The notes under the pieces were generated by a model, which was not told the origin of the DNA, did not search any database, and saw only the letters and a program-made list of their open reading frames with translations. A DNA stretch of 64,000 nt from NCBI RefSeq assembly GCF_963422545.2, contig NZ_CAXVYT010000026.1:11844-75843 (forward strand), read 5' to 3'. This document shows, piece after piece, positions 1 to 19,010 of the stretch. Source of the DNA: an uncultured Flavobacterium sp. (lineage in GTDB: Bacteria > Bacteroidota > Bacteroidia > Flavobacteriales > Flavobacteriaceae). Positions within the stretch are counted from its first letter, which is position 1; every line of letters starts with the position of its first letter. A program made the position numbers and the translations under genes.

Positions 1-1112
1 TGAAAACATTCAAAACCATCTTTGAACAATATGACTGGGATTCCATTCAATCAAAAATATACCAAACCACATCAAAAGATGTTGAGCGCGCTTTAGTAAA
101 AAACAAACGAAATCTCGATGATTTTTTAGTTTTGATTTCTCCTGCTGCGCAACAATATTTAGAGCAAATGGCACAACAATGTCATGAAATCACCAAAAAG
201 CGTTTCGGGAAAACCATACAAATGTATGCGCCTCTGTATTTGAGTAACGAATGCCAGAACATTTGCACCTATTGTGGTTTTAGCTTAGACAATAAAATCA
301 ACCGAAAAACACTTTCTGATGCCGAAATTAAACTTGAAGTTGAAGCGTTAAAAAATACCGGTTTTGACCATGTTTTATTAGTTACCGGCGAAGCAAATTA
401 CACTGTAAATATTAATTATTTCCTGAATGCGATTGCTTTAATCCGAGAACAATTTTCAATTATTTCTGTTGAAGTTCAACCACTTTCTACCGAAGATTAT
501 AAACGTTTGCATGAAGCCGGAGTTTATTCCGTTTTGGTATATCAGGAAACCTATCATCAGGAAGTTTATAAAAAATATCACACGAAAGGCAAAAAATCAA
601 ACTTCGATTACAGACTGGAAACTCCCGACCGAATTGGAATTGCAGGAATTCATAAAATAGGACTAGGCGTTTTATTAGGTTTGGAAGATTGGCGAACAGA
701 TAGTTTTTTTAATGCTTTACACCTCGATTATCTTCAGAGAAAATACTGGCAGACTAAATATTCAGTTTCATTTCCGAGATTACGTCCTGCAGAAGGCATT
801 ATTGAACCCAATTTTATTATGGATGATAAGGATTTAACCCAACTTATTTGTGCGTATCGTTTATGGAATGAAGATTTGGAAATTTCTATTTCGACCCGTG
901 AAAATGAAAAATTCAGAAACAATATTATTCCAATTGGAGTTACAAGTATGAGCGCAGGTTCAAAAACAAATCCGGGTGGCTATGTTGTTGATCCACAATC
1001 ATTGGAACAATTTGAAATTAGCGACGAACGCTCTGCAGAAGAAATAGCGAAAATCATAACAGAATCAGGCTACGAACCTGTTTGGAAAGATTGGGACAAA
1101 AGTTACAATTAA
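1..1112 (+). CDS. thiH: 2-iminoacetate synthase ThiH (radical SAM); start codon clipped by left window edge
   Basis: It has the radical-SAM CxxxCxxC motif 'CQNICTYCGFS' and a ThiH-like sequence. The listed start (TTG at 132) is not real. The same frame stays open back to nt 3 (KTFKTIFEQYDWDSIQSKIYQTTSKDVERAL...), and nt 1-2 'tg' look like the end of the ATG. Confidence 0.9.
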   Translation, partial: KTFKTIFEQYDWDSIQSKIYQTTSKDVERALVKNKRNLDDFLVLISPAAQQYLEQMAQQCHEITKKRFGKTIQMYAPLYLSNECQNICTYCGFSLDNKINRKTLSDAEIKLEVEALKNTGFDHVLLVTGEANYTVNINYFLNAIALIREQFSIISVEVQPLSTEDYKRLHEAGVYSVLVYQETYHQEVYKKYHTKGKKSNFDYRLETPDRIGIAGIHKIGLGVLLGLEDWRTDSFFNALHLDYLQRKYWQTKYSVSFPRLRPAEGIIEPNFIMDDKDLTQLICAYRLWNEDLEISISTRENEKFRNNIIPIGVTSMSAGSKTNPGGYVVDPQSLEQFEISDERSAEEIAKIITESGYEPVWKDWDKSYN

Positions 1113-1207
1113 AGAAATTCCAAATTGAAAATCCCAAATTCCAACCAAATCTAAAATTTCAGGTTTCAAATTTCACAAACAACATTTCACATTTCACCTT
1201 TTACAAA

Positions 1208-1918
1208 ATGAGCATTATACAAGAATTTTTACGCTACAATAGACAAACCATCCTTCCCGAAATTGGCGATGAAGGTCAGGAAAAACTCAAAAAAGCAAGA
1301 GTTTTGGTCATTGGTGCCGGAGGTTTGGGATGTCCAATTTTACAATATATTGCTACGGCAGGCGTCGGTTTTATTGGGATAATGGATTTTGATACTATTG
1401 AAATTCACAACCTGCACAGACAAATTTTATATACTGAAAATGAAATCGGACAAAGCAAAGTTCGTGTTGCCAAAGAAGTAGTTTCAAAACTAAATCCGTT
1501 GATTGAGACTGAAGCTATTAATGAGAAATTGACCGTAGAAAATGCAAGTGAAATTATTCAAAAATATGATATTATTGTGGATGGTTCTGACAATTTTACG
1601 ACACGTTATTTAGTTAACGATACTTGTGTTGCATTACAAAAGCCTTTAGTTTATGGAAGTATTTTGAAGTTTGAAGGGCAAGTTGCCGTTTTTAACCACA
1701 ACGGAAGTAAAAATTTACGCAATTTATTTCCTGAAATGCCAGATCCAAAAGATGTTCCTAATTGTAATTTGAATGGTATTTTAGGAACTTTACCTGGAAT
1801 TATTGGTACTATGATGGCGCACGAAACTCTGAAACTAATTTTAGAATTACCTACTTTAAAAAATGAATTGGTTCTTTTTAGTACTTTGAATTGGAGCTTT
1901 ACAAAACTGAATTTCTAA
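1208..1918 (+). CDS. thiF: ThiF/MoeB/HesA-family adenylyltransferase (thiazole biosynthesis)
   Basis: It has the Rossmann motif 'VLVIGAGGLGCP' and the start 'YNRQTILPEIG', and it lies directly after thiH. I place the start at the ATG at 1208 (MSIIQEF...). The 1082-1207 part of the ORF is a low-complexity repeat-filled spacer. Confidence 0.85.
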   Translation: MSIIQEFLRYNRQTILPEIGDEGQEKLKKARVLVIGAGGLGCPILQYIATAGVGFIGIMDFDTIEIHNLHRQILYTENEIGQSKVRVAKEVVSKLNPLIETEAINEKLTVENASEIIQKYDIIVDGSDNFTTRYLVNDTCVALQKPLVYGSILKFEGQVAVFNHNGSKNLRNLFPEMPDPKDVPNCNLNGILGTLPGIIGTMMAHETLKLILELPTLKNELVLFSTLNWSFTKLNF

Positions 1919-3989: not shown

Positions 3990-4865
3990 TTATTTCTTAG
4001 CTAAAAGCACTTTCCAAGCCGACGAAATATCATCTTTATTCAGGTATTTTTTGGCTTCTAAATGTATTTTTTCCTGATCGTCTGAGCTTAAAACTCCTTT
4101 TACAGAAAAATTTTCTTTCACAAATATACTAACTTCTTCCGTTGTAGGCAAGGCTTCTACATTGCCTAATTTCCCAAGATCATTTCCGTCAAATACGGGG
4201 CTTTCTTTTATATAATTGGGAATTGCATCTACACCAACTCCTAAAGTTGTCAATGGTTTTGGCACTTCAAAAAGCCCTTGATTTGACCTTGAATACCAAT
4301 TACTTCCCAATCTCGAAACTAAGTCTATTTTGTGTTGATCGATTGCTCCATTTTCATCTAAAATAGCTTCATGAATATGAATTTTAACTACTTCGCAAAG
4401 AATCAAATTTCCTGCTCCGCCCTCTGTTCCCAAAGGAATTATCTGTGTGACTTTGCACTCAAACTGCACTGGAGACTCTTTTACCCGATACGGTTTTACA
4501 AAATCTGATGGAATTTGTGTTAATCCGGCTTTTATAAACTCGTTTACACCTTCTCCATATTCTGTACTTGCCAATGATGTTTGTTGTACCAAATCATAAT
4601 TAACAACATTAATTACTACTTCACGAGTTGCCTCAGCATTAATTAAAGTATGTTTTATGGTGTTATCGCGTACACGTCTTGCAGGCGAAAAAACCAATAT
4701 TGGCGGATTGGCACTGAACACATTAAAGAAACTAAATGGCGACAAATTCGGGATTCCTTTTGCACTTAACGTACTTGCAAATGCGATTGGTCTTGGTCCA
4801 ATGGCACTTTGCAAATAACCCTGCAATTTTGCCGTTGGTATCTCTTTTGGATCGATGCTAATCAT
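3990..4865 (-). CDS. flavin reductase-like (FMN-binding split-barrel) family protein
   Basis: 'GPRPIAFASTLSAKGIPNLSPFSFFNVFSANPP' matches the Flavin_Reduct signature pattern. Confidence 0.7.
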   Translation of the reverse strand: MISIDPKEIPTAKLQGYLQSAIGPRPIAFASTLSAKGIPNLSPFSFFNVFSANPPILVFSPARRVRDNTIKHTLINAEATREVVINVVNYDLVQQTSLASTEYGEGVNEFIKAGLTQIPSDFVKPYRVKESPVQFECKVTQIIPLGTEGGAGNLILCEVVKIHIHEAILDENGAIDQHKIDLVSRLGSNWYSRSNQGLFEVPKPLTTLGVGVDAIPNYIKESPVFDGNDLGKLGNVEALPTTEEVSIFVKENFSVKGVLSSDDQEKIHLEAKKYLNKDDISSAWKVLLAKK

Positions 4866-5027
4866 ACTTTTTCTTTTTAACCGAATCTCGTTTCGGAAGC
4901 TACAAAAGTAGAGAAATCGTTTTTGTCAAAGAAATACTTTCGGACTTAAAAACAAAAAAAATCTTTAGAGCTTCATAAAATATTAAATGTGTTTATTTCG
5001 TTATATTTATACCTCAAAAAATAATTT

Positions 5028-6179
5028 ATGTCTTTTTCCGAAAGAAGAAATATAACCCGCTGGATCATTGTTTTTATTTCCTTTCTAATCATTTCTTTGA
5101 TTCTTTGGAATACTTATACTTTTTTTCAAATTTTCAAAAATGAGGAACGCCTTAAAATGAATCTTTGGGCTAATGCTCAAAAGACTTTAGTTAATGCCGA
5201 TGAGAACACTAATTTAGATCTTCCGTTGGATATTCTAAACAATAATACTTCGGTACCGGTAATGCTTACGATGTATGATAAGGTCATTAGTTCTGTCAAT
5301 GTTCCTGAGGAAGTTCTGGCCGACAGAGAGAAGACTACATCTTATTTGAATAATTTAAAGAGCGAAAATGATCCTATAGTTATTGAATATGCTCCCGGAA
5401 AACATCAGGAAGTATATTATGGAAACTCGGCATTACTTAATAAACTCAAATATTATCCAATTGCTTTATTGTTGATTATCTTTTTGTTTGGCGCTTTAAT
5501 TTATAATTTCTACAGAAGTACTAAAATGGCGACTCAAAATAAACTTTGGGCAGGAATGGCAAAAGAAACCGCACATCAAATTGGAACACCATTATCTTCC
5601 TTAATAGGTTGGGTTGAAATCTTAAAGACCGAAAACATTGATCTGTCGATAACATCAGAAATAGAAAAAGATATTGAGCGACTGCAAACTATTACGGATC
5701 GTTTTTCAAAAATTGGATCTGTTCCTGTTTTAGAAAAACATGATATTGTTGCCGAAACCCTGAATACTTACGGGTATTTACAATCTCGTTTTTCGAAGCA
5801 GGTTACTTTCTCTTATCACACTCCCGAAGAACCAATTTTTGCTATGATAAACCCAACATTGCATAGTTGGACTATTGAAAATCTAGTTAAAAACGCAATT
5901 GATGCCATGAAAGGAAAAGGAACTCTGGACCTTCAAATTGAACAAGATACGCATCATGTAAAAATCAACGTGAAGGATTCCGGAACGGGAATTTTGAAAA
6001 AGCAATTTAATACCATTTTCGAACCTGGTTTTACTACCAAGAAACGTGGCTGGGGATTGGGACTTTCTTTAACCAAAAGAATCGTAGAAGAATATCATCG
6101 CGGAAAAATAAAAGTCTTGCATTCTGAAATTGGAAAAGGAACCACATTTCAGATTTCTCTAAATAAAAAAGTGCAGTAA
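5028..6179 (+). CDS. sensor histidine kinase (two TM segments, no adjacent response regulator)
   Basis: It has the H-box 'ETAHQIGTPLSSL', the N-box 'NLVKNAIDAM' and the G-boxes 'DSGTGI' and 'GWGLGLSL'. Confidence 0.88.
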   Translation: MSFSERRNITRWIIVFISFLIISLILWNTYTFFQIFKNEERLKMNLWANAQKTLVNADENTNLDLPLDILNNNTSVPVMLTMYDKVISSVNVPEEVLADREKTTSYLNNLKSENDPIVIEYAPGKHQEVYYGNSALLNKLKYYPIALLLIIFLFGALIYNFYRSTKMATQNKLWAGMAKETAHQIGTPLSSLIGWVEILKTENIDLSITSEIEKDIERLQTITDRFSKIGSVPVLEKHDIVAETLNTYGYLQSRFSKQVTFSYHTPEEPIFAMINPTLHSWTIENLVKNAIDAMKGKGTLDLQIEQDTHHVKINVKDSGTGILKKQFNTIFEPGFTTKKRGWGLGLSLTKRIVEEYHRGKIKVLHSEIGKGTTFQISLNKKVQ

Positions 6180-7350: not shown

Positions 7351-7764
7351 ATGAAAAAAATCTGGCTTATAATCGTATTTGTTTCTGTGCTCTTCTCTTG
7401 TAGCGATAATAGCAAAAGCAATAAAAATCCTAATATCCCAAATTATTCCATTAATCTGTCTATAGATATGAATCTGCCGGCTTATTCAAATCTTAAATTT
7501 GCAAGTAATGGAGTTATCGTTCCTAGTTATGGAGCAAAAGGTGTTATTATTTTTAATGCAGGAAGCGGCTATAATGCATTTGATGCAGCTTGCCCAAATC
7601 AACCCATAACCGCATGTACTGCGATGACAATTGATGGTATTAATGCCGTTTGTTCCTGTGATAAATCTTCTTACAGTTTATTTACCGGACTTGGAGGTAA
7701 AGAATATCCATTGAAACAATATCGTGTTGAAGTTATTGGAAGCGTAGTTCATGTTTACAACTAA
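7351..7764 (+). CDS. hypothetical lipoprotein
   Basis: It has a signal peptide with the lipobox 'VLFSC'. It is Cys-rich ('DAACPNQ', 'AVCSCD'), possibly a degenerate Rieske-like fold. That fold call is unverified. Confidence 0.65.
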   Translation: MKKIWLIIVFVSVLFSCSDNSKSNKNPNIPNYSINLSIDMNLPAYSNLKFASNGVIVPSYGAKGVIIFNAGSGYNAFDAACPNQPITACTAMTIDGINAVCSCDKSSYSLFTGLGGKEYPLKQYRVEVIGSVVHVYN

Positions 7765-7767
7765 AAT

Positions 7768-7806
7768 AAAAAAAGCCTGAAAATTTAAAACTTTCAGGCT
7801 TTTTAT
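7768..7806. terminator. bidirectional rho-independent terminator
   Basis: The stem 'agcctgaaa'/'tttcaggct' is flanked by an A-run and a T-run. It sits between convergent genes ending at 7764 and 7821. Confidence 0.75.
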
Positions 7807-7820
7807 TTTGTAGAAATCCT

Positions 7821-10010
7821 TTAGAATTTCAGAGTCAGTCCGGCAAGGAAATTAATTCCCGCCTGAGGATAGTAGTACGGGTAAACATCCCACATATACC
7901 CATTTGAAACATACTTTTTATCCAAAATATTATTTACTAAACCAGTAATCATAATTGATTTAAAGATTGATTTAGGTTTTATTTCATAAGAAACATTCAA
8001 ATCGTTTACAAAATAGTCAGCTAGTTTTGCGGCAGGCAATTCTATATTGTTCATGTATTGCTCTCCAACATATTTTTGCAATAATGAAAGGTGTAAACTT
8101 TGAATTGGACTATAAACAATAATGTTTCCAGCAATAACAGATGGCGAATAAGCAATTTCTGTTGTTCCATAATTTTGACCTTCAACAGCCAAATCAATAT
8201 TTTTATTACTGCTTAAAGTAAAATTTGGACGAAGAATAAACTTCTCTGAAAGCTTAATTGTTGCATCTGCTTCAAATCCTAAGCGGTAACTTTTTTCGGT
8301 ATTAGCACGAATTGGAGATCCTACATCGTCAAGCCTTCCTGTCAGAATCAATTGATCTCTGTAACCCATATAATAAACATTTGAGTTCAATTGAAATTTC
8401 TCTGAATTGAATCTCCAGCCTAATTCAAAATCATTTAATTTTTCCGGTTTTGCATGTCCACCTTCGTAATCTGTTCTGTTTGGCTCACGATTTGCACGAG
8501 CGTATGAAAAATAAAGAGTATTTTTTTGATTGATTTCGTAATTCAATCCTGCTTTTGGGTTAAAGAAATTGAAGTTATCATCAACTACACCGGTTTCAGC
8601 GCTATTAGCTTTATATTTTACATTTCTATATTGCAAATCTCCATAGAAACTCAATTTTTCTGTGAATTGATAGTTTGCTTTCGCGAAAATATTCCCATCT
8701 GTTTTTGTTGAAAAATCATCGTAATAATGATCGCCTAATTCAGACTTATCAGAATATCTGGCCCAGATTACTTTACCAAAATGATCTCCTTCATATTTAT
8801 TCCAGCCTCCGCCAAGAATAACATCTAACTTTTCTTCTTTATATTTTACTGAAAAAGTTGTTCCGTAGAAATCATTATCTAACCATTTCTGACGGATTAA
8901 ATCGGTTCCAAGAACTAATTCTCCTAAAGCATTTTCAACCATTTTTGTAGACTGAATTGGTCCATATCCAGCAACTGGTTCATTATATTTATAATTTTCA
9001 TAAAACCCTTTTCCTTTAGTATAATGAATAGCTAAGTTGCTGCTCCATTTATCAGAAAGCGATTCACTCCAATGTAATTGATAATGATTTTGTTTATAAT
9101 TATCAGTTTCGTTGTCATAGAAATGGACATTTCCTGCATCATCTTTATACTTTCCTGCTGAATTATAAGTTCGATCTGAATTTAATGTCTCAGCATCAAT
9201 TCCGTTCCAGGATTGGTATGTTTTTTCAGTTCCTCCAAAAACTAACGCTTTAATTAAAGTTGTTTTTCCAACATAAGTTCCTTGAAGAAAATACGATTTT
9301 AAATCTGAGCTTGCACGATCTACATAACCATCAGATTTAATGGTAGACAAACGTCCTGCAAGTTCAAAATGATCGTTTAATAGACCTGTGCTAAATTTTA
9401 CTGTATTTTTATTAGAATTAAAACTTCCGTAAGAACTTGAAATTTCTCCATTAGCTTTAGACGCATAATTGTCTGTCAACATATTCAAACTTGCACCAAA
9501 AGCAGCAGCACCATTTGTAGAAGTTCCTACACCACGCTGCAATTGCAGACTCTCTACAGAAGAGGCAAAATCAGGCATATTCACCCAGAAGGTCCCTTGA
9601 CTTTCGGCATCGTTGTATGGAATTCCGTTTATCGTTACATTTACTCTCGTTGCATCGCTACCACGCACTCTGATTCCGGTATAACCCATTCCGTTTCCTG
9701 CATCAGAAGTTGTTACAACTGATGGTAAGTAATTCATTAAAATTGGAATATCCTGACCCAGATTTCTAAATTTAATATCTTTTTTATCCAGATTGCTAAA
9801 ACTTACCGGCGTTTTTGCAGTAACACGAACCGCAGAAACCAATACATCGTCAAGCTTGTTGACTTTTGTAGAATCTTGTTCCTGAGCGAAAGAAAAAAGA
9901 GTAAAGAAAATAGAGAATAGAGTAAAGAAAATAGATTTTTGATTCAACTTTGAACCTTTGCAACTTTGTACCTTTGTACCTTTAAAAGCACCTTTAATAA
10001 TAGTTTTCAT
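7821..10010 (-). CDS. TonB-dependent outer-membrane receptor (TPP-riboswitch controlled; probable thiamine/precursor uptake)
   Basis: It has a plug and barrel with a C-terminal 'LTLKF' and the TonB-box region 'DDVLVSA'. A TPP riboswitch lies about 90 nt upstream. The true start may instead be the TTG at 9947, giving MNQKSIFFTLF...FA|QEQ (see finding). Confidence 0.88.
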   Translation of the reverse strand: MKTIIKGAFKGTKVQSCKGSKLNQKSIFFTLFSIFFTLFSFAQEQDSTKVNKLDDVLVSAVRVTAKTPVSFSNLDKKDIKFRNLGQDIPILMNYLPSVVTTSDAGNGMGYTGIRVRGSDATRVNVTINGIPYNDAESQGTFWVNMPDFASSVESLQLQRGVGTSTNGAAAFGASLNMLTDNYASKANGEISSSYGSFNSNKNTVKFSTGLLNDHFELAGRLSTIKSDGYVDRASSDLKSYFLQGTYVGKTTLIKALVFGGTEKTYQSWNGIDAETLNSDRTYNSAGKYKDDAGNVHFYDNETDNYKQNHYQLHWSESLSDKWSSNLAIHYTKGKGFYENYKYNEPVAGYGPIQSTKMVENALGELVLGTDLIRQKWLDNDFYGTTFSVKYKEEKLDVILGGGWNKYEGDHFGKVIWARYSDKSELGDHYYDDFSTKTDGNIFAKANYQFTEKLSFYGDLQYRNVKYKANSAETGVVDDNFNFFNPKAGLNYEINQKNTLYFSYARANREPNRTDYEGGHAKPEKLNDFELGWRFNSEKFQLNSNVYYMGYRDQLILTGRLDDVGSPIRANTEKSYRLGFEADATIKLSEKFILRPNFTLSSNKNIDLAVEGQNYGTTEIAYSPSVIAGNIIVYSPIQSLHLSLLQKYVGEQYMNNIELPAAKLADYFVNDLNVSYEIKPKSIFKSIMITGLVNNILDKKYVSNGYMWDVYPYYYPQAGINFLAGLTLKF
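9948..9983. repeat. tandem 8-nt repeat CTTTGNAC x4.5 in the riboswitch-to-CDS leader / annotated N-terminus
   Basis: The sequence reads 'ctttgaac ctttgcaa ctttgtac ctttgtac cttt'. The 8-nt period is not a multiple of 3. Confidence 0.85.
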
Positions 10011-10261: not shown

Positions 10262-10747
10262 TTATTTGTTCTTTTCAATTATCATATTTATTTTTTTTAG
10301 GCTAAAGAGTGATATTCCAATTATCAAAAATAATATTCCTTGCGCAATATATTTGTATCGCAAATTGTAGTTTACATTTTCAGGAGAAATAATTCCTCTC
10401 ATAACTCCGTTAAACAAGCCAAGCCTGCTTATTAAAATACTCAACAAAAACACAAATAGACAATTTAACAATAACCATTTCTTTTTTACAGAAACTGCTA
10501 TTGAAAGAACAGTGCCAATTAATATAACTATGGAAATTGAAAGTCCCTTAGCCAAAGATACATTCATAATATCTACAGAACTTAACGCATATTTTTTTGC
10601 GTTATGAGCTATTTTTTCAACTCCGTTTTTCTGTGATAATTCTAAAATCCGTATATTATACAGTCCTGAAAAAGAATATATTGACAAAATAAGAATCCAA
10701 ACTCCTATTGTATGGAAAACAATTTGCAAATAATTAAGTTTCTTCAT
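10262..10747 (-). CDS. hypothetical integral membrane protein
   Basis: The 161-aa ORF has about 4 hydrophobic segments. I recognise no motif. Confidence 0.6.
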   Translation of the reverse strand: MKKLNYLQIVFHTIGVWILILSIYSFSGLYNIRILELSQKNGVEKIAHNAKKYALSSVDIMNVSLAKGLSISIVILIGTVLSIAVSVKKKWLLLNCLFVFLLSILISRLGLFNGVMRGIISPENVNYNLRYKYIAQGILFLIIGISLFSLKKINMIIEKNK

Positions 10748-10778: not shown

Positions 10779-11183
10779 TTAATCTAAATCCGGTTTTCTT
10801 CTTGATTGTTTAAGATCAGAAATATTCTTTTTGTCTTTGATACGTTTTTTAATTACAGATTTTGGAATCTTAGTCGCTTTTCGAGCCTTAGGAACAAACA
10901 ATCCTTTTTTAATTATTTCCAAAAATCGCTTTGTAACAATATCTTTGTTTTTAAGCTGGCTTCTATCTTCATCACAATTTAAAACAAGTATATTTTCAGT
11001 TGTTAATCGTGATGCAATGTTGGTTTGTAAAAGCAGTTTTTCTTCTTCAGACAAAGCCTGAGAAGTATTCAAATCAAAAGTCAAAACCACTTTTGAGGAG
11101 ACTTTATTCACGTTTTGTCCACCGGCACCACTACTTCTAACAGCCTTAAAACTTAACTCTGATATGATTTTATCTATATCCAT
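10779..11183 (-). CDS. arfB: alternative ribosome-rescue factor ArfB (peptidyl-tRNA hydrolase, GGQ)
   Basis: It has the GGQ motif 'SGAGGQNVNKVSS' and a basic C-terminal tail. Its ATG overlaps the upstream stop (TAATG). Confidence 0.88.
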   Translation of the reverse strand: MDIDKIISELSFKAVRSSGAGGQNVNKVSSKVVLTFDLNTSQALSEEEKLLLQTNIASRLTTENILVLNCDEDRSQLKNKDIVTKRFLEIIKKGLFVPKARKATKIPKSVIKKRIKDKKNISDLKQSRRKPDLD

Positions 11184-13297
11184 TATTGTAGTTGGTGTGC
11201 TGGTTTTAGCAAATCATTTACTGTTTTTACCGGATTAAAAGTGATTAACGGTACCGACACAAAAATAGTCAGCCAGTTTGCCATTGCACCATTCCATAAT
11301 CCTGGCAATTCATAGCTTTTTACTGTTTTGCCGTCTACACTTTTCTCTACAATAAAACCCGCATTTTGATCTACAAATCGCAACAAATCAAATTTTTGAT
11401 TTTTATAATTTCTGATTCCGCAAACTAAATCTACCGGGTTGAAATGTGTCGCTTCGGTTAAAATTTTTTGCTGCTTTTTACTTTCTATATCAACTTGAGA
11501 GCTCTCTACAATTTGAAGACTTACTACACCATGATCATTCATAACCCAAAACGGACCTCCGCCAGGTTCTCCTTCATTTTTAACCATTCCGCATACTCGG
11601 ATTGGTCTGTCCAGTAATTCTTTAATTTTATCAATTTTGTTTTCAAAAGTAAACTTATCAAAGTCTTCTGTGATTTCTATATTTAGCTTTTTAGTCAAAA
11701 ACGTAACTACTTCGTCTATAGAATCTTCTTTTATTTCCTGCTTATCGATCGCTTTTAAATAATTGAAAACTCTTTGTTGATTTTCTATTAAAATTCCCGC
11801 CAAAGCCTTTTTGTACAATGTAGTTTCTTCAATATGATTTTGAATCACATTGTCAATATTCTTTATAAAAATAACATCTGAGTCAAGATTACCCAAATTT
11901 TCAATCAATGCTCCGTGTCCTCCAGGTCTAAAAACCAGTGCTCCATTTTGATCTCTGAAAACTTTATTTTTTGTTTCAATAGTAATAGAATCTGTGGCTT
12001 TATTTTGATAAGAATAGCTAATATCAATTTTAGTTTCTGAACGTTCTTCTACTTTATCTTTTACCAATTCTACAGCTTCTTCAAATAAATCCTGATGTAT
12101 TTCAGAAACGGTAAAATGCAAATGAGAAACTTGATTTGCTGTTGCATAATGCACACACTCATTCAAATGCTCCTCTATTGGGTTTGCGATATGCGTTTTA
12201 TACTTATGAAAAGGTAAAACTGCTTTTGGTTTATTGGCAAAATTAAAATGATCCGAAGACATTAATAATTTTATAAAATAATAGTTTTTATAATTTCTAT
12301 CTAAAGTTTCAAAATCAGGATAGATTTCTTTTAATTTTTTATCTATAGCTTCAAAAAACGGAAACTTCTCCATTGCTACAATAAAAATTGGCAGTTCTTT
12401 GTCTTTTTTTCTATTAATATAAGCATTTATTGTTTCTTTTTCGACTTCAAACTCATTCAAAAATGATTTCAAAAACTTAAACATTCTTGTTGCCGCTCCA
12501 GAAGCCGGAACAAATTTATTTAATTTTAAATGTTCTCTTTGACAATCAAAAAAAGCTGCTTTTTCTTCAAAATCTTCATTTGATAATTCTACAATTCCGT
12601 TACCAATAGTTGCCGGACTTATCAAATTGCTTTTTGAAATCCCCTTCTTTAAAATCTTAAACTGTTCAATTATATTCTGAAAAGGAATTCCATGCTCGTA
12701 AATCTGAACAAAATCTTCTGATGTAAAATTACGTTCTTTAGCCATAGTCAAATCATTGATAATAGCTATAGCTTTTGCCAGTCGACATTCTTTATCTCCG
12801 GAAAGTGTTATAAAAGGCTTTTTAGTATCAATCAGTGTTTGTTTAAAAACTGAAAAAACACTTTCTCTACCATCAGGAGTATCTCTAATGTCGTCTTTTT
12901 CCCAAGGAACATCAATATCTGTAAGGAAAAACAAATCGTATTCATGCTCTAAAGCTGCTTCGTGTAATAATGGATCTGAGAAGCCATAATACATTTCAGA
13001 AAAAACCTTAGTAACCATTAAATTAGTATCGCAAAACAAATACTTATTTGCCACAGTAAGTTTTTTATTTTCTAGTGCAACTTGTCCGTATGCAATAGGC
13101 ATCATATCATCAGCTACGCAAATATGCTGATTCTCTTCCCATTTTTCTTGTAAATAGTCACGTGCAAACTCAGGAACCCATTCGGTTTCATAGTATTCTG
13201 CAAGTTGTTTTGCCAATGTGGTTTTTCCTGTACTTTCAGGACCAAATAAAGCAATTTTTATGATAGCTGTTTTTTGCTGTCTAAGATCTTTCTCCAT
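11183..13297 (-). CDS. fusion protein: NadR-type ribosylnicotinamide-kinase-like P-loop domain + DUF4301-like domain with UGPase-like motifs
   Basis: Residues 1-184 carry 'FGPESTGKTTLAKQLA...EFARDY...FCDT...DVPWEKDDIRD', matching the NadR RNK/AAA_28 pattern. Residues 185-704 carry 'FVPASGAATRMF', 'FRPGGHGALIENL' and 'IFIKNIDNV'. No stop separates the two parts, and an internal Met lies at nt 12745. Confidence 0.8.
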   Translation of the reverse strand: MEKDLRQQKTAIIKIALFGPESTGKTTLAKQLAEYYETEWVPEFARDYLQEKWEENQHICVADDMMPIAYGQVALENKKLTVANKYLFCDTNLMVTKVFSEMYYGFSDPLLHEAALEHEYDLFFLTDIDVPWEKDDIRDTPDGRESVFSVFKQTLIDTKKPFITLSGDKECRLAKAIAIINDLTMAKERNFTSEDFVQIYEHGIPFQNIIEQFKILKKGISKSNLISPATIGNGIVELSNEDFEEKAAFFDCQREHLKLNKFVPASGAATRMFKFLKSFLNEFEVEKETINAYINRKKDKELPIFIVAMEKFPFFEAIDKKLKEIYPDFETLDRNYKNYYFIKLLMSSDHFNFANKPKAVLPFHKYKTHIANPIEEHLNECVHYATANQVSHLHFTVSEIHQDLFEEAVELVKDKVEERSETKIDISYSYQNKATDSITIETKNKVFRDQNGALVFRPGGHGALIENLGNLDSDVIFIKNIDNVIQNHIEETTLYKKALAGILIENQQRVFNYLKAIDKQEIKEDSIDEVVTFLTKKLNIEITEDFDKFTFENKIDKIKELLDRPIRVCGMVKNEGEPGGGPFWVMNDHGVVSLQIVESSQVDIESKKQQKILTEATHFNPVDLVCGIRNYKNQKFDLLRFVDQNAGFIVEKSVDGKTVKSYELPGLWNGAMANWLTIFVSVPLITFNPVKTVNDLLKPAHQLQ

Positions 13298-13881
13298 TCT
13301 AAATAAGCTGAAATAGCCAAAATTGTAAAAATTAAATACTGAAGTGACAACATCCCTAAGCCGCGATAAGCATAAAGAGGCACTACAATAATATCACCAA
13401 TAATCCAAAGTGTCCAGTTTTCGATTTTTTTCCTGGCCATGTACCACATTCCTGCAAAAAATATTCCAGACGAAATCATGTCAACATAATTGTCTTTTTT
13501 GATATCGTAGTCAAAAAACTTATAAATCCCGAAAACTACAAAAACAGTAACAATAAACAGTCCGATTCCGATTATTTTTTCATTAAAACTCGTTCGGGTA
13601 ATTGGTAAATTATCCTCGGCTGTTCCTCCTTTTGCCCAGACATACCAACCATAAATACTCATAATCGAGAAATATCCATTGATAATCATGTCTCCTATGT
13701 AACCTGCAATATATAAGAGATATACTGAAATTACTGTAGCAATTAGACCTGTAGGATATACCCAAATATTTTCTTTTTTAGCAAACCAAACGCTCAAAAT
13801 TCCGCAAACAAAAACCAAAAACTCCAGAGCAATATGCCATAAAGGAGCGTTCTTGTAACTATCGAGAAAAAAATCAATCAT
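13258..13881 (-). CDS. pnuC: PnuC-family nicotinamide riboside transporter
   Basis: It is a 207-aa polytopic protein with a PnuC-like sequence. Its 3' end overlaps the next ORF by 40 nt. Confidence 0.8.
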   Translation of the reverse strand: MIDFFLDSYKNAPLWHIALEFLVFVCGILSVWFAKKENIWVYPTGLIATVISVYLLYIAGYIGDMIINGYFSIMSIYGWYVWAKGGTAEDNLPITRTSFNEKIIGIGLFIVTVFVVFGIYKFFDYDIKKDNYVDMISSGIFFAGMWYMARKKIENWTLWIIGDIIVVPLYAYRGLGMLSLQYLIFTILAISAYLEWRKILDSKKQLS

Positions 13882-13902: not shown

Positions 13903-14634
13903 TTATTCTGATTCAAAAAAATGACTGTCATTTTCAAAAGCAGTTCCAATAACTACTAAATCAGCACCAGCATTATATGCATTTTGAATTCCGTGCAAAT
14001 CTACAATTCCTCCTCCAACAATTACAGGAATTCTGATATTTTGCGAAATTAACTGTATCATTTCCAGCGGAACGGCATTTTTTGCTCCGCTTCCAGCCTC
14101 TAAATAGATTAATTTATTTCCTAACATTTCTCCCGCCTGTGCGGTTGCCAAAGCCAGATCAAAATCTTCTCTATTAAGCGGTTTTGTTTTACTAACCCGG
14201 GCAACAGCAGTTTCATTACCACTTTCTATTAAAATATAACCTGTAGAAATAACCTCCAGATTCGTTTTTTTAAGAATTGGTGCCGCCTGAACCTGATATT
14301 CTATTAAATAATCAGGATTGCGACCAGACAATAAAGACAAGAACAAAATAGCATCTGCCTGAGGTGAAATCTGTGACGGATTACCCGGAAATATCACAAC
14401 TGGCAAATTGGTATTTTGTTTTAATTGTGCAATCAAATCTTCTAAGATTGTTGATTCCACAATACTCCCTCCCACAAAAATATGTGTTGCAGGAGATTCG
14501 TTTATCTTCTGTAATAAATGGTCTAAATTTTCCCAGACAATTTTATCCGGATCCAAAAGTATAGCCAATAATTTTTGTCCATCTCTTTTAGCCTCTAAAA
14601 TTTGCTGATGTATATTGCGTAATTTTTGCTGCAT
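13903..14634 (-). CDS. pcrB: PcrB/GGGP-synthase family prenyl-glyceryl-phosphate synthase
   Basis: The TIM-barrel motifs 'IFVGGS', 'IYLEAGSGA' and 'VIVGGGI' are present. Confidence 0.82.
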   Translation of the reverse strand: MQQKLRNIHQQILEAKRDGQKLLAILLDPDKIVWENLDHLLQKINESPATHIFVGGSIVESTILEDLIAQLKQNTNLPVVIFPGNPSQISPQADAILFLSLLSGRNPDYLIEYQVQAAPILKKTNLEVISTGYILIESGNETAVARVSKTKPLNREDFDLALATAQAGEMLGNKLIYLEAGSGAKNAVPLEMIQLISQNIRIPVIVGGGIVDLHGIQNAYNAGADLVVIGTAFENDSHFFESE

Positions 14635-14727: not shown

Positions 14728-15324
14728 ATGATTGCATTTGATCTTTTGGAAAAATATGGTGCTGTGAAGAAAAATTTCGCCAAAAACGAAATTATTTTTG
14801 AGGAAGGGAATTTGCCAACTCATTATTATCAAATTGTTTCCGGCGAAGTAAAAATGAGCAATTATAATGATGATGCCCGCGAATTTATTCAGGGAATCTT
14901 TTATAAAGAACAATCTTTTGGAGAACCGCCTTTGTTCTTAAATCAAAAATATCCTGCTAATGCCATTGCGGTTGAAGATTCAGAAATTCTTCTGTTGCCT
15001 AAAAACAGTTTTATGAAATTGCTGGAAGAAAACTCCGCTATTAGCATTAAAATCATCGAAAATTTAGCCCAACGTTTGTATTACAAATCGGTTATGGCAG
15101 CCGAAATGTCTACGCAGGAACCTGAACATCGTGTTTTGAAATTAATCGATCACGGAATTGCTTATTTTAATTTCAAGAAAAACGAAAACGGCTACCTCAT
15201 TAATTTCACAAGACAACAAATTGGGGATTTAACCGGTTTACGCGTCGAAACTGTCATCAGAACCATAAAAGCTTTGGAAAAAAAAGGTGTTTTGAAGATT
15301 ATAAACAGGAAAGTATACCGATAA
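14728..15324 (+). CDS. Crp/Fnr family transcriptional regulator
   Basis: It has a cNMP-binding beta-roll ('FEEGNLPTHYYQIVSGEVK', 'FGEP') and a C-terminal HTH ('QQIGDLTGLRVETVIRTIK'). Confidence 0.88.
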   Translation: MIAFDLLEKYGAVKKNFAKNEIIFEEGNLPTHYYQIVSGEVKMSNYNDDAREFIQGIFYKEQSFGEPPLFLNQKYPANAIAVEDSEILLLPKNSFMKLLEENSAISIKIIENLAQRLYYKSVMAAEMSTQEPEHRVLKLIDHGIAYFNFKKNENGYLINFTRQQIGDLTGLRVETVIRTIKALEKKGVLKIINRKVYR

Positions 15325-15376
15325 AATAGTTCTTGTTTTATGATTTTAGTCATAAAATAGAGCCTCAAAGTGCTTG

Positions 15377-15384
15377 TAACTTTG
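15377..15384 (+). promoter_or_regulatory. -7 promoter box TAnnTTTG
   Basis: 'taactttg' lies 21 nt upstream of the ATG at 15405. Confidence 0.5.
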
Positions 15385-15404
15385 TAACTCTAAAAACAAA
15401 TATT

Positions 15405-15692
15405 ATGACACTTTATCAAACAACATTTGAAAATTTCAATAAAAATTATATTGGTTCTGCAACAATGGCTGTAATTGGTCAAAGCTGTTTAGGTGCAGCT
15501 GCAGCAATGTATATTCTTTCTCACGGAACCTCTATTGGTCAGATGATACAATTGGGTATTATTGTTTTGGCTTGTATCTTAGCCAATACCTCTATCTTGG
15601 CACAAATGAAACACAAAGTGGTTTTTAACTTCATTCTTACCAGCGTTATATTAAGTATTTTATTTATAATCCTGAACAACTTCTTAGTATGA
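15405..15692 (+). CDS. small 3-TM membrane protein
   Basis: I place the start at 'MTLYQTTF' rather than 15333, because the promoter box lies inside the longer ORF. It overlaps the globin gene by 4 nt (ATGA). Confidence 0.6.
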   Translation: MTLYQTTFENFNKNYIGSATMAVIGQSCLGAAAAMYILSHGTSIGQMIQLGIIVLACILANTSILAQMKHKVVFNFILTSVILSILFIILNNFLV

Positions 15693-16075
15693 GAAAACAA
15701 ATAGAAAATAGAGCTGATGTTTCTTTTTTAGTACATCAGTTCTATACTAAAATAAGAGCCGATGAAGAAATTGGTTTTTATTTTAATACCATGATTAAAG
15801 ATTGGGACACACATCTTGAAAAGCTAACAGATTTTTGGGAAACCAATTTATTTGCAGTAAAAAAATACAAAGGCAATCCGCATGCAGTACACAATAAAGT
15901 TGACGCACATTTTGAGGGCTCAATCACCTCGAACGAATTCGGAATATGGCTTAATTATTGGGTTCAGACTTTAGATGAACATTTTGAAGGCGAAAATGTA
16001 GAAACCCTGAAAAGACGTGCCCGAAAAATGGGAACTTTTTTGTTTGTGAGCATGTTTGAACATCGCAAAAGATGA
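15689..16075 (+). CDS. group III truncated haemoglobin (Ctb-like)
   Basis: 'FYTKIRADEEIGFYFN...W..HLEKLTDFWETNLF...YKGNPHAVH' follows the pattern of group III trHb. Confidence 0.72.
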   Translation: MRKQIENRADVSFLVHQFYTKIRADEEIGFYFNTMIKDWDTHLEKLTDFWETNLFAVKKYKGNPHAVHNKVDAHFEGSITSNEFGIWLNYWVQTLDEHFEGENVETLKRRARKMGTFLFVSMFEHRKR

Positions 16076-17089: not shown

Positions 17090-17890
17090 TTATAACATTT
17101 CAGCTAATTTCACAATTAACCATGCCAACGGAATAAAAATAAATTGTCCCAAAATGGTTCCAAAAATACGTGCAATTATAACAAAAGTTAGATGTCTTCT
17201 AAAAAATGATTCGGTTACAGAACCGTCTATAACTTTGTCTGTTAAAGTTGCATGATATGGCTCTATAAACAACATCATACCAATAGAGCCTAAGCTAACG
17301 GCAACACCACTCATTGACAATGATGTAGTTCTTAAATTTGGATTTAAATAGCCTGCATATAAACATGATAATACACTTACTGTAATAAAAGCGTATACCA
17401 CAACGTTCAGTAACACTAATTCTATATATATATCTTTAAATTTATTTAATCGATCAAAATTAGATTTCTTTGGTATTGTACAACTATTTTTAAAATGAAT
17501 AACTGTAGACAAACTAAACGATTTAATTACTACCAAAAAAACTGAGCGATTATTATATAATGCATTTACACCTTTTTCCATAAATCTGTGAATTGTTGGA
17601 ATCAATAAACCTCCCAAAACACTTCCAATTGTAGCAGAAAAGATAATATATCTAAAGATTGAAAGATCTGGCGAGTTTCCAAGATTGATATTATTTTCGA
17701 CCGTTTTTGTCAACAAAGGAGCTTGTATTGTATTTGAAAATTGTGATATGATAATTATTATATTAAAAATAGAAGCAGAAGAGGCAATTCTCCTGGTCCT
17801 TGTTCCAACAATCTTAGCCGATAAACTAATAATCCCTATAAAATGAATTATCAAAGTAAGTATGCAAACTATTAAAATATTAGCTGTCAT
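17090..17890 (-). CDS. polytopic membrane protein resembling lipid II flippase Amj (DUF2837)
   Basis: It is 266 aa with about 8 hydrophobic segments. The N-terminus 'IHFIGIISLSAKIVGTRTRRIASSASIFNIIIIISQFSNTIQAPLL' matches my recollection of the Amj/DUF2837 signature. This needs HMM confirmation. Confidence 0.5.
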   Translation of the reverse strand: MTANILIVCILTLIIHFIGIISLSAKIVGTRTRRIASSASIFNIIIIISQFSNTIQAPLLTKTVENNINLGNSPDLSIFRYIIFSATIGSVLGGLLIPTIHRFMEKGVNALYNNRSVFLVVIKSFSLSTVIHFKNSCTIPKKSNFDRLNKFKDIYIELVLLNVVVYAFITVSVLSCLYAGYLNPNLRTTSLSMSGVAVSLGSIGMMLFIEPYHATLTDKVIDGSVTESFFRRHLTFVIIARIFGTILGQFIFIPLAWLIVKLAEML

Positions 17891-17936: not shown

Positions 17937-19010
17937 TTATTTTTTTAAACAATACTTTAAAAAAGCATACAATTTAAGAAATTTCGATTTTAAACGAAGC
18001 TTCGTTAAATTTACTATTATACACTTATATATAAATATATATTGAAAAAATGGAGAATTATATTTTCCTCTTATTTGATTTTTAAAATCTATTATCACAT
18101 CTGAGTAAATCTCTTCTAATTGTGAAACAACCGAAAGAAAATTAGACTCTTTAATAATATATTCAGAAACTTTAATTGTATCGCAAAAATCATATTTATT
18201 AATCTCTACAATCAGATTATTTTTTGTCGGGATATTCGTCATGAGTTTCATTCCAAAATTAAAATCTCTAAAATGTTTCATATTAGAACTTGTAACCATA
18301 CCTCCTAATCCTCTAAAATCACAAACAATTACAGCGGCTCCTGTTGCCATAGCTTCTATTGCTGCTTTTGCTTTCGCAAACACCAAATCATATTCATTAA
18401 GTATTTTTTCAGGCTGCAGACAAATATTCCCACTTGAATAACCTATTATTTCAACTTCAACTCCAAGCTCTTTACAAGCCTCTTTTATTTGAGGATAAAT
18501 ATTATTATCATTCAAATAATTAGAAAAAACCAATGCCTTTTTTGGTTGTTTATTAATATTTTCTTTCAAACGAAATCGGTCTGTATTTACCCAATTATAA
18601 ACAATTTCCACATCCTCTTCTTTAAAATTATTTTCTAAACAATATCGTTCTTTACAATTATAATCAACAGCTACATATCTAAGAATATTCTTATGTATAT
18701 ATGGATGATCAAATATAAAAGTCCTATCATGAATAAAATAAACTACAGGGGTAAATTTAAAAAAACTTATTGCTTTAAGTGCGGTAATATTGTGATGTGC
18801 ATGAATAATATCAGGAATTAGCTTTAACTTTTTTAAATTAGAAGTAACGTTAATTCCTTTTTCTATCAACTCCTTCGACAAATTACCCATTCTCAATGTG
18901 AAAATTTCTACTAAATGCCCTCTGTTGACGAGTTCAATTGCTAATTCTTTTACATATGTTTCTGTTCCGGTGTATTCAGAAATAGCAATGTTTGTGATTA
19001 ATACATTCAT
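17937..19010 (-). CDS. GT-B glycosyltransferase, family 4 (Glycos_transf_1)
   Basis: The C-terminal-domain motif 'AKAKAAIEAMATGAAVIVCDFRGLGGMV' is present. Its ATG directly abuts the upstream stop. Confidence 0.78.
   Translation of the reverse strand: MNVLITNIAISEYTGTETYVKELAIELVNRGHLVEIFTLRMGNLSKELIEKGINVTSNLKKLKLIPDIIHAHHNITALKAISFFKFTPVVYFIHDRTFIFDHPYIHKNILRYVAVDYNCKERYCLENNFKEEDVEIVYNWVNTDRFRLKENINKQPKKALVFSNYLNDNNIYPQIKEACKELGVEVEIIGYSSGNICLQPEKILNEYDLVFAKAKAAIEAMATGAAVIVCDFRGLGGMVTSSNMKHFRDFNFGMKLMTNIPTKNNLIVEINKYDFCDTIKVSEYIIKESNFLSVVSQLEEIYSDVIIDFKNQIRGKYNSPFFQYIFIYKCIIVNLTKLRLKSKFLKLYAFLKYCLKK

Follow-up and report, generated by a model that had tools for sequence, protein, structure and literature searches.

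The window analysed here is a 64,000-nt stretch of contig NZ_CAXVYT010000026.1 of an uncultured Flavobacterium sp. (assembly GCF_963422545.2, positions 11,844 to 75,843 of the forward strand). On its minus strand the gene of a PnuC-type facilitator overlaps a 704-aa open reading frame (ORF) in which a NadR-type ribosylnicotinamide kinase (RNK) domain is joined to a DUF4301 domain, and genes for a TonB-dependent receptor, the ribosome-rescue hydrolase ArfB and a PcrB-family protein lie close by (Table 1). The fusion is genuine and fixed across the genus Flavobacterium, and what is new in it is a UDPGP-superfamily branch of bacteria that is joined, in this case, to an RNK. As to function, we tentatively favour, at a probability of roughly 0.45, that DUF4301 is a nucleoside-diphosphate-sugar (NDP-sugar, probably UDP-hexose) pyrophosphorylase that became fused to the kinase through loss of a stop codon, and not a dedicated nicotinamide mononucleotide (NMN) adenylyltransferase, a preference that rests on sequence comparison and a predicted structure.

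Table 1. Features of the pnuC–RNK–DUF4301 locus (positions in the window)
Feature	Position	Strand	Remarks
137-aa ORF	7351-7764	+	no Pfam match; flanks TonB receptor
Terminator-like hairpin	7770..7804	-	16-bp stem and T-run; consensus scan
TonB-dependent receptor	7821..10010	-	Plug and TonB_dep_Rec_b-barrel domains
161-aa predicted membrane protein ORF	10262-10747	-	no Pfam match; flanks TonB receptor
ArfB, alternative ribosome-rescue peptidyl-tRNA hydrolase	10779-11183	-	NF006718, 121 bits
RNK-DUF4301 fusion ORF	11183..13297	-	704 aa; overlaps pnuC by exactly 40 nt
DUF4301 C-terminal domain	11183..12721	-	residues 193-704 and stop; PF14134 full length
RNK N-terminal domain and helical connector	12722..13297	-	residues 1-192; AAA_28 and NadR structure matches
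pnuC, Pnu-family riboside/vitamin facilitator	13258..13881	-	207 aa; last 40 nt overlap fusion gene start
PcrB/GGGP-synthase family gene	13903-14634	-	NF003198, 299 bits; gene end 21 nt upstream of pnuC

A sequence-only reading of this DNA had described a single 704-aa ORF fusing a NadR-type kinase to DUF4301, had given its overlap with pnuC as 40 nt and had quoted several motifs together with an internal methionine codon at nt 12745. All of this was found again. In a Pfam scan of the 704-aa protein AAA_28 matches residues 14-170 (E 4e-38) and DUF4301 (PF14134) residues 193-702 (E 2e-200, model positions 2-507 of 507), E-values so low that the domain matches are not due to chance, and the overlap computed from the coordinates is exactly 40 nt. 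The kinase motifs GPESTGKTTL, EFARDY, FCDT and PWEKDDIRD lie at residues 19-28, 43-48, 88-91 and 131-139, and PASGAATRMF, RPGGHGAL and FIKNIDNV of the DUF4301 part at residues 264-273, 457-464 and 477-484; the internal methionine is residue 185, within the connector between the two domains. An ORF of 704-706 aa is present in all 80 Flavobacterium genome loci collected by a profile scan of genome contigs, which was seeded with a shallow Flavobacterium alignment and returned Flavobacterium only, and an assembly or frameshift artefact is therefore excluded. The nearest genome matches, Flavobacterium sp. JAS and ov086, are 94-95% identical across the DUF4301 domain. Structure prediction for the whole fusion gives a compact model (pTM 0.83) with an ordered connector and a LID of low pLDDT. 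The architecture is already in the databases, under the names 'DUF4301 family protein' and 'nicotinamide riboside kinase', albeit without an explanation.

By its sequence, the N-terminal domain is a NadR-type ribosylnicotinamide kinase. In a sequence search of the PDB residues 9-185 alone find matches, and solely to the RNK halves of NadR proteins, with 9x6f of phage Bas30_86 (E 1e-20) followed by 8x7f, 1lw7 and 6gye, which upholds the kinase assignment of the sequence-only reading. In the alignment with 9x6f, 8x7f and 1lw7, which covers their RNK halves, the three signatures GxxxxGKT, hhhhDT(D/N) and W-x-x-D-x-(I/L)-R are all matched; among 15 fusions conservation is at least 90% in Walker A (GPESTGKT), in Walker B (FCDTN) and in the LID (PWEKDDIRD). 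TIGR01526 and PRK08099, in turn, match through the RNK portion only, TIGR01526 along no more than its positions 164-320 and with 99 bits against a cutoff of 341. A canonical NMN adenylyltransferase (NMNAT) domain, that is the HIGH-motif Rossmann domain CTP_transf_like, is not detected by Pfam in the 704-aa protein, in agreement with the sequence-only reading, and a helix-turn-helix (HTH) repressor domain is not matched either, the protein beginning 13 residues ahead of the P-loop strand. The 120 closest RNK homologues are RNK-only proteins (185-209 aa) or RNK-DUF4301 fusions, and none of them carries a canonical NMNAT domain.

The comparison with NadR, including the phage protein Bas30_86 of the NARP3 system, therefore has two sides, as the kinase domains are homologous down to Walker A, Walker B and LID and the gene is paired tightly with pnuC, as in NARP3 and many nadR-pnuC operons, whereas the fusion lacks both the HIGH-type NMNAT domain and the HTH, carries its kinase at the N-terminus instead of the C-terminus, and has a partner domain of the unrelated UDPGP-type fold. 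For Bas30_86, which is found alongside a PnuC-like transporter, conversion of nicotinamide riboside (NR) to NMN and on to NAD was shown experimentally (PMC13464706). The fusion might then be a NadR analogue built from other parts, in which DUF4301 would act as an NMNAT of UDPGP fold and the whole protein would lead from NR imported by PnuC via NMN, made by RNK, to NAD, made by DUF4301 with ATP; the stand-alone DUF4301 proteins of other bacteria of the Fibrobacterota-Chlorobiota-Bacteroidota (FCB) group would in that case recycle NMN arising, for example, in the DNA ligase reaction. The fusion itself and the overlap with pnuC speak for such a role, as does the want of a canonical NMNAT in every close RNK homologue, and the chemistry would be analogous, since in both reactions a phosphate monoester attacks the alpha-phosphate of a nucleoside triphosphate (NTP). 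Bacteroidota, on the other side, have NadD and usually PncC, leaving no obvious gap in the pathway. In view of this and of the evidence below we regard the NadR analogue as rather unlikely, and the wider proposal, that DUF4301 is an NMNAT of UDP-sugar-pyrophosphorylase fold across the FCB group and the Flavobacterium fusion a convergent NadR with reversed domain order, as unlikely.

To which family does the C-terminal domain belong? The sequence-only reading had seen in it a relation to UDP-glucose pyrophosphorylase (UGPase)-type nucleotidyltransferases, and this is borne out by the predicted fold, by family matches and by collinear motifs. The AlphaFold (AF2) model of DUF4301, built on 65 diverse homologues, reaches a pLDDT of 94.7 and a pTM of 0.93. 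Used as Foldseek query against the PDB, it finds UGPase, UAP1 or USP in all of the top 23 matches (E 8.5e-11 to 8.5e-6, probability 1.0, TM 0.35-0.49), among them human, plant, Leishmania and Aspergillus UGPases, and RmlA, GalU and GDP-mannose pyrophosphorylase come later in the ranking with E-values of at least 1e-3. PF01704 (UDPGP) gives sub-threshold matches in 23 of the 65 relatives (best E 1.4e-6), and no other Pfam family is matched by more than one of them. The window's own DUF4301 domain has no match to PF01704, the gathering threshold not being reached, and sequence and profile searches of the PDB with DUF4301 return nothing, even at E 10.

A motif map was obtained with hhalign against human UGP2 and AGX1, which are 100% identical to 4r7p and 1jv1. 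In default mode only the C-terminal 100 residues are aligned (probability 27%), and in relaxed mode (-mact 0.05) the motifs become collinear with those of UGP2 and AGX1, again at a probability of 27%, for which reason the map is of low confidence when taken alone. The pairs, with DUF4301 named first, are PK/GPKS, FRPGGHG/YPPGHGD, FIKNIDNV/FVSNIDNLG, EPGGG/DVKGG, LQIVExxQ/LRLVEIAQ, HFNP/FNTNN, ELPG/LETA and FNPVKTVNDLL/FLPVKTTSDLL. Across the 65 diverse DUF4301 proteins each aligned motif residue is either invariant or conserved in at least 90%; invariant throughout are G75, R79, K166, Q239, H269, N288, N291, G387, G388, E406, F427, E471 and K499 (domain numbering), the last being the Lys of PVK and K691 of the whole fusion. 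The positions which, from the AGX1 and UGP structures, we take to bind sugar and phosphate, namely the Asn of NIDN, the GG pair, the Glu of xVExxQ, the Asn of FN, the Lys of PVK and the His of GHG, are all retained, being invariant or at least 90% conserved in the same 65 proteins. PASGAATRMF, which contains the invariant G75 and R79, resembles the AGGQGTRL loop and lies some 83 residues ahead of the PK motif; it was placed by motif similarity and model topology, not by alignment.

DUF4301 thus shares with the eukaryote-type UDPGP proteins (UGPase, UAP1/AGX1, USP) the predicted fold and the order of motifs, which runs from a G-rich loop with T-R (in DUF4301 a putative one) through PK, GGHG, NIDN, GG, xVExxQ, FN and E to PVKxxxDLL. 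It differs from them in matching PF01704 below threshold or not at all, in its occurrence in Bacteroidota and relatives, and in two helical insertions (domain residues ~83-160 and 297-370). The first of these comprises about 83 helical residues that separate the G-rich loop from the PK motif, two elements which are contiguous in the UDPGP signature L(X)2GXGTXM(X)4PK, and the second adds about 45 helical residues after NIDN. The C-terminal beta-helix, the oligomerisation domain of the UDPGP proteins, is absent, as the protein stops 7 residues past FNPVKTVNDLL (13 past its Lys) and the model contains no such domain. The family has, in addition, invariant motifs of its own, CGMVKNEGEPGGGPFW and ELPGLWNG. 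Judged from the model and these motifs, DUF4301 is a divergent branch of the eukaryote-type UDPGP superfamily, and since the family motifs are invariant its active site looks intact.

What does this placement say about the reaction? The structural neighbours all use UTP and sugar-1-phosphates, and together with the retained sugar-site positions this favours an NDP-sugar pyrophosphorylase and weighs against an NMNAT, for which it could be held that the invariant Trp and Phe of the acceptor-side region (PGLWNGxMAxW) might stack on the pyridinium ring. A further possibility, which we consider improbable, is that DUF4301 nucleotidylates a phosphate ester other than a classical hexose-1-phosphate or NMN, for instance the phosphate of a polyol, of glycerol or of an amino sugar, or else a precursor specific to the FCB cell envelope, with the link to RNK being incidental or regulatory. 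In its favour, the family has diverged too far to reach the PF01704 threshold, shows invariant motifs not shared with others as well as the two large insertions, and finds among its weak Foldseek matches inositol-1-phosphate cytidylyltransferase, a member of the wider GT-A-like nucleotidyltransferase fold. Against this stands that the retained Asn, Glu, Asn and Gly positions look like a pyranose-1-phosphate site.

How tightly is DUF4301 bound to pnuC and RNK outside this genus? A scan of 1.84 billion cluster representatives (clustering at 50% identity) retrieved 2602 DUF4301 clusters when E <= 1e-3 was allowed and 1088 when E <= 1e-30 was required. Among the 150 best representatives, 147 are stand-alone proteins of ~500-530 aa and three are fusions of ~700 aa. 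Members with a name come from Bacteroidales, Cytophagales (Flexithrix, Cyclobacteriaceae), a Chlorobiota metagenome-assembled genome (MAG) and one Brocadiaceae MAG, and are annotated just as DUF4301 or hypothetical; the restriction of the family mainly to Bacteroidota and relatives would also suit an acceptor specific to their envelope. In a diversity sample of 80 metagenomic loci, with the family consensus as first sequence and 54-61% identity to that consensus, RNK lies directly upstream of DUF4301 in seven. PnuC is found in six of these linked loci, PcrB in six, ArfB in all seven and the receptor in four. A fusion is present in one of the seven, while in the six split loci the stop of RNK overlaps the start of DUF4301 or lies at most 7 nt from it, and this translational coupling can be added to what argues for an NMNAT. 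Neither RNK nor PnuC occurs in any of the 62 unlinked loci that have at least 600 bp of upstream flank. In a rough neighbour-joining tree the linked DUF4301 proteins group into a single clade, at the base of which stand the fused forms, and linkage to RNK and pnuC is, as far as sequences tell, confined to this clade, the named members of which are all Flavobacteriaceae. The linkage to pnuC seen in the window hence does not extend to the family as a whole.

The neighbourhoods of unlinked DUF4301 genes vary widely and include PEPCK, PGK, RRF, a carboxyltransferase and RelA/SpoT. Of the 53 diverse loci whose flank is long enough, 22 have a full-length RelA/SpoT gene (HD_4, RelA_SpoT, TGS and ACT domains) that divergently adjoins the stand-alone DUF4301 gene, lying ~140 nt upstream on the opposite strand in L113, L114, L122, L123, L125, L128 and 16 further metagenome loci; this adjacency may reflect lineage synteny or shared regulation. 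A phage origin of DUF4301 or a NARP-like context was considered and rejected, as only three unannotated faecal-virome contigs matched and IMG/VR gave nothing. The three (MT839125.1, MT837672.1 and MT837181.1) are short 'Bacteriophage sp.' contigs from human faecal viromes with DUF4301 sequences of 43-55% identity, and their DNA is probably of bacterial (Bacteroidales) origin.

A comparison of 13 linked with 79 unlinked DUF4301 sequences revealed no discriminating column, so that specificity-determining positions for the linked proteins were rejected, and in 80 alignment columns identity reaches at least 95% within each of the two sets, suggesting the same chemistry with or without pnuC and RNK nearby. 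Moreover, the uptake genes also occur without DUF4301. Wenyingzhuangia marina (L178) has a small ORF followed by PnuC, RNK, ArfB and the receptor, which is the Flavobacterium order, in a locus without DUF4301 (identity to the window 61% for PnuC, 60% for RNK, 57% for ArfB and 51% for the receptor), and a Tenacibaculum MAG has PnuC, RNK and the receptor, likewise in a locus without DUF4301. The NMNAT reading is therefore burdened by the more than 90% of the family that have no pnuC or RNK neighbour, by the modules of Wenyingzhuangia and Tenacibaculum and by linked proteins that lack residues specific to them. It is helped by L088 and L090, where PnuC, RNK and DUF4301 persist together after reshuffling of their surroundings, and by the SIR2 gene, a NAD consumer, beside the L090 cluster. 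The line of transport, phosphorylation and nucleotidylation drawn in the sequence-only reading survives in its kinase and in the UDPGP relation of its last enzyme, and is weakened as a pathway by the linkage in a single clade, the modules lacking DUF4301 and the missing distinguishing residues. For these three reasons and because the sugar-binding positions are retained, an NMNAT role is not the best-supported one.

The part of the locus that does recur is the uptake system. PnuC matches PF04973 (E 4e-48, 164 bits against a cutoff of 27.3) and TIGR01528 (84 bits, cutoff 42.45) and shows a weak match to the Neisseria mucosa PnuC structure 4QTN. Its overlap with RNK is kept at 37-46 nt in L081, L088, L090, L178 and L179. 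The receptor is syntenic in all 80 Flavobacterium genome loci and present in four linked metagenome loci; in the split locus L081 it finds no match, and orthologues adjoin the module in L090 (42% identity, full length) and in Wenyingzhuangia. By analogy it is probably the outer-membrane partner of PnuC and RNK. Clusters of a TonB-dependent receptor, PnuT and thiamine pyrophosphokinase are said to have been described in Bacteroidetes by Rodionov and colleagues in 2002, and they would resemble the present locus in that a vitamin uptake module is made up of an outer-membrane TonB receptor together with a facilitator of the Pnu family and a kinase that traps the cargo. They would differ from it in that here no thiamine pyrophosphate (TPP) riboswitch is matched in Rfam, the kinase is of RNK type and a UDPGP-like gene is embedded. 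Riboswitches were also sought more widely (TPP, NAD+-II/pnuC motif) and discarded, there being no Rfam match in the window and just 21 nt upstream of pnuC. From gene order and sequence, the conserved functional unit is the receptor with PnuC and RNK, at times with a Thiamine_BP-like protein, a predicted vitamin uptake-and-trap module.

This last protein is encoded by a gene of 83-86 codons with weak similarity to Thiamine_BP/YkoF (PF01910), which directly precedes pnuC in most relatives outside Flavobacterium (L081, 4598-4858; L090, 2570-2821; L104, L118, L136, L163, L169 and L178) and is absent from the window, L166 and L088. The protein may serve the uptake module as an accessory that binds the ligand, and it bears on the identity of the PnuC cargo. 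At the edge of the window (132-1918, plus strand), 6-8 kb from the receptor gene, there are thiamine-biosynthesis-like genes, for a radical-SAM protein with BATS domain (ThiH/BioB-like) and for ThiF.

What does PnuC transport? The WxxW(x)3D/N motif of transmembrane helix 6 reads WTLWIIGD (residues ~164-171) and ends in Asp. The thiamine transporter PnuT likewise has Asp at this place, the N. mucosa transporter of NR Asn; the Asp is conserved in L081 and L090. Going by sequence, the cargo is likely NR, with the PnuT-like Asp speaking for caution. It could be imagined that PnuC carries another riboside or a glycoside, which the AAA_28 domain phosphorylates and DUF4301 activates as an NDP derivative, and besides the Asp the Thiamine_BP/YkoF-like gene ahead of pnuC in most linked loci outside Flavobacterium would fit, as would the existence of bifunctional kinase/pyrophosphorylase salvage enzymes such as Fkp of Bacteroides. 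We consider this very improbable, as 1) the kinase domain matches NR kinases specifically (9x6f and the RNK domains of NadR); 2) RNK phosphorylates the 5'-OH of ribose and not the anomeric position; 3) the distribution arguments against an NMNAT hold equally; 4) the window contains no riboswitch according to Rfam. More generally, RibF (riboflavin kinase/FMN adenylyltransferase), Bacteroides Fkp (fucokinase/GDP-fucose pyrophosphorylase) and AmgK-MurU resemble the present case in that a small-molecule kinase and a nucleotidyltransferase share a polypeptide or operon beside an uptake system. In those systems, however, the two activities are consecutive and always co-occur, whereas most genomes have RNK and DUF4301 apart and without linkage, and the uptake module is also found in loci without the transferase.

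The genes around the fusion are arranged compactly. From PcrB to the end of the receptor gene the minus strand has a single hairpin resembling an intrinsic terminator, the one behind the receptor gene, which suggests, on sequence grounds, a single transcription unit of PcrB, pnuC, fusion, arfB, membrane ORF and receptor. A sigma-70 promoter scan of the window was also made, with a consensus that is not meaningful for promoters of Bacteroidota. The ATG of arfB shares 1 nt with the TAA stop of the fusion (TAATG), and ArfB stands directly 3' of DUF4301, or of RNK where DUF4301 is missing, an arrangement shared by Flavobacterium, the linked split loci and Wenyingzhuangia. Plainly unrelated genes are thus packed in the Flavobacterium block as tightly as pnuC and the fusion, PcrB being 21 nt from pnuC and ArfB overlapping by 1 nt. 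The 161-aa membrane ORF found no tblastn match at E < 1e-8 in the 80 Flavobacterium loci. PcrB is syntenic in 78 of the 80 Flavobacterium loci and in six of the seven linked metagenome loci, the seventh being a short contig. The nearness of this GGGP-synthase homologue in Flavobacterium and the linked relatives, together with a faint PcrB-like gene ~4 kb upstream of DUF4301 in the unlinked locus L085, could point to an acceptor other than a hexose-1-phosphate; a consistent neighbour that would indicate such a pathway was not found. Divergent from the PcrB-pnuC block, positions 14728-16075 (plus strand) encode a Crp/cNMP-binding regulator, a small membrane ORF and a weakly bacterial-globin-like protein, and further on 17090-17890 (minus strand) encodes a homologue of the lipid II flippase Amj ('alternate to MurJ'; PF10997, E 1e-70) adjoining a GT4 glycosyltransferase gene at 17937-19010.

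With the stand-alone occurrence of more than nine tenths of the family away from pnuC and RNK, and with uptake modules that do without DUF4301, a phylum-wide housekeeping NDP-sugar pyrophosphorylase is the most likely function of DUF4301. How would the parts then work? The receptor would take the riboside over the outer membrane, PnuC would facilitate its diffusion over the inner membrane, and RNK would phosphorylate it with ATP to NMN and thereby trap it. DUF4301 would catalyse NTP + R-O-phosphate to NMP-phosphate-O-R + PPi, most probably with UTP and a hexose-1-phosphate, and a candidate role of such a housekeeping enzyme would be to supply the GT3-type glycogen synthases of Bacteroidota. 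The fusion would have been born by stop-codon loss between two translationally coupled neighbours, and as stop and start overlap or are at most 7 nt apart in the split relatives, one mutation could have been enough. The comparisons show the identity of the domains, the fold, the conservation of the motifs and how the linkage is distributed; we infer that NR is the substrate, what the receptor does, that a sugar phosphate is the acceptor and that the fusion arose neutrally.

In L090 a gene for a GT3 glycogen synthase (PF05693, E 6e-190; 4124-5920) lies between RNK and DUF4301, 81 nt upstream of the latter; the SIR2 gene of this locus is divergent from the cluster. Adjacency to glycogen synthase as a general rule was rejected, since it is seen in L090 only and in none of the 80 diverse loci. 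Our literature search found no characterisation of DUF4301/PF14134, the sole mention being in a metaproteome table, and no statement on which UGPase gene Bacteroidota use. The DUF4301 protein of Prevotella ruminicola is abundant enough for detection in the rumen metaproteome, and such abundance would be unusual for an NMNAT. The UGPase of P. bryantii is reported to be activated by fructose-1,6-bisphosphate. Prevotella makes glycogen via UDP-glucose (PMC4432691), and Bacteroidetes possess GT3 synthases (PMC11046441).

Several points weigh against a pyrophosphorylase fused by accident. Gene fusion usually predicts a shared pathway well, and this fusion is retained in all 80 Flavobacterium loci sampled, with an ordered connector and a pTM of 0.83 overall. 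It is common for a vitamin kinase to share a polypeptide with the adenylyltransferase of its pathway, as in NadR and RibF, which invites the NMNAT reading, and a canonical NMNAT domain is found in none of the 120 closest RNK homologues. Furthermore, the trio of PnuC, RNK and DUF4301 is kept in L088 and L090 though every other flanking gene differs, and the adjacency to glycogen synthase occurs in one of ~100 distinct contexts.

DUF4301 is a large and highly conserved family found throughout Bacteroidota, including the Bacteroidales of gut and rumen, and its placement in the UDPGP superfamily with a predicted intact active site makes it assayable with a short list of candidate reactions. The case also advises caution in inferring a shared pathway from a fusion, as this one is fixed in a genus and its halves are independent elsewhere. 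Should DUF4301 be an NMNAT after all, it would introduce a new fold at a step central to NAD synthesis and a third unrelated structural solution for turning NMN into NAD. If, as we favour, it is a UDP-glucose or UDP-sugar pyrophosphorylase of Bacteroidota, it would add one more non-orthologous type of UGPase and would account for the supply of their eukaryote-like GT3 glycogen synthases.

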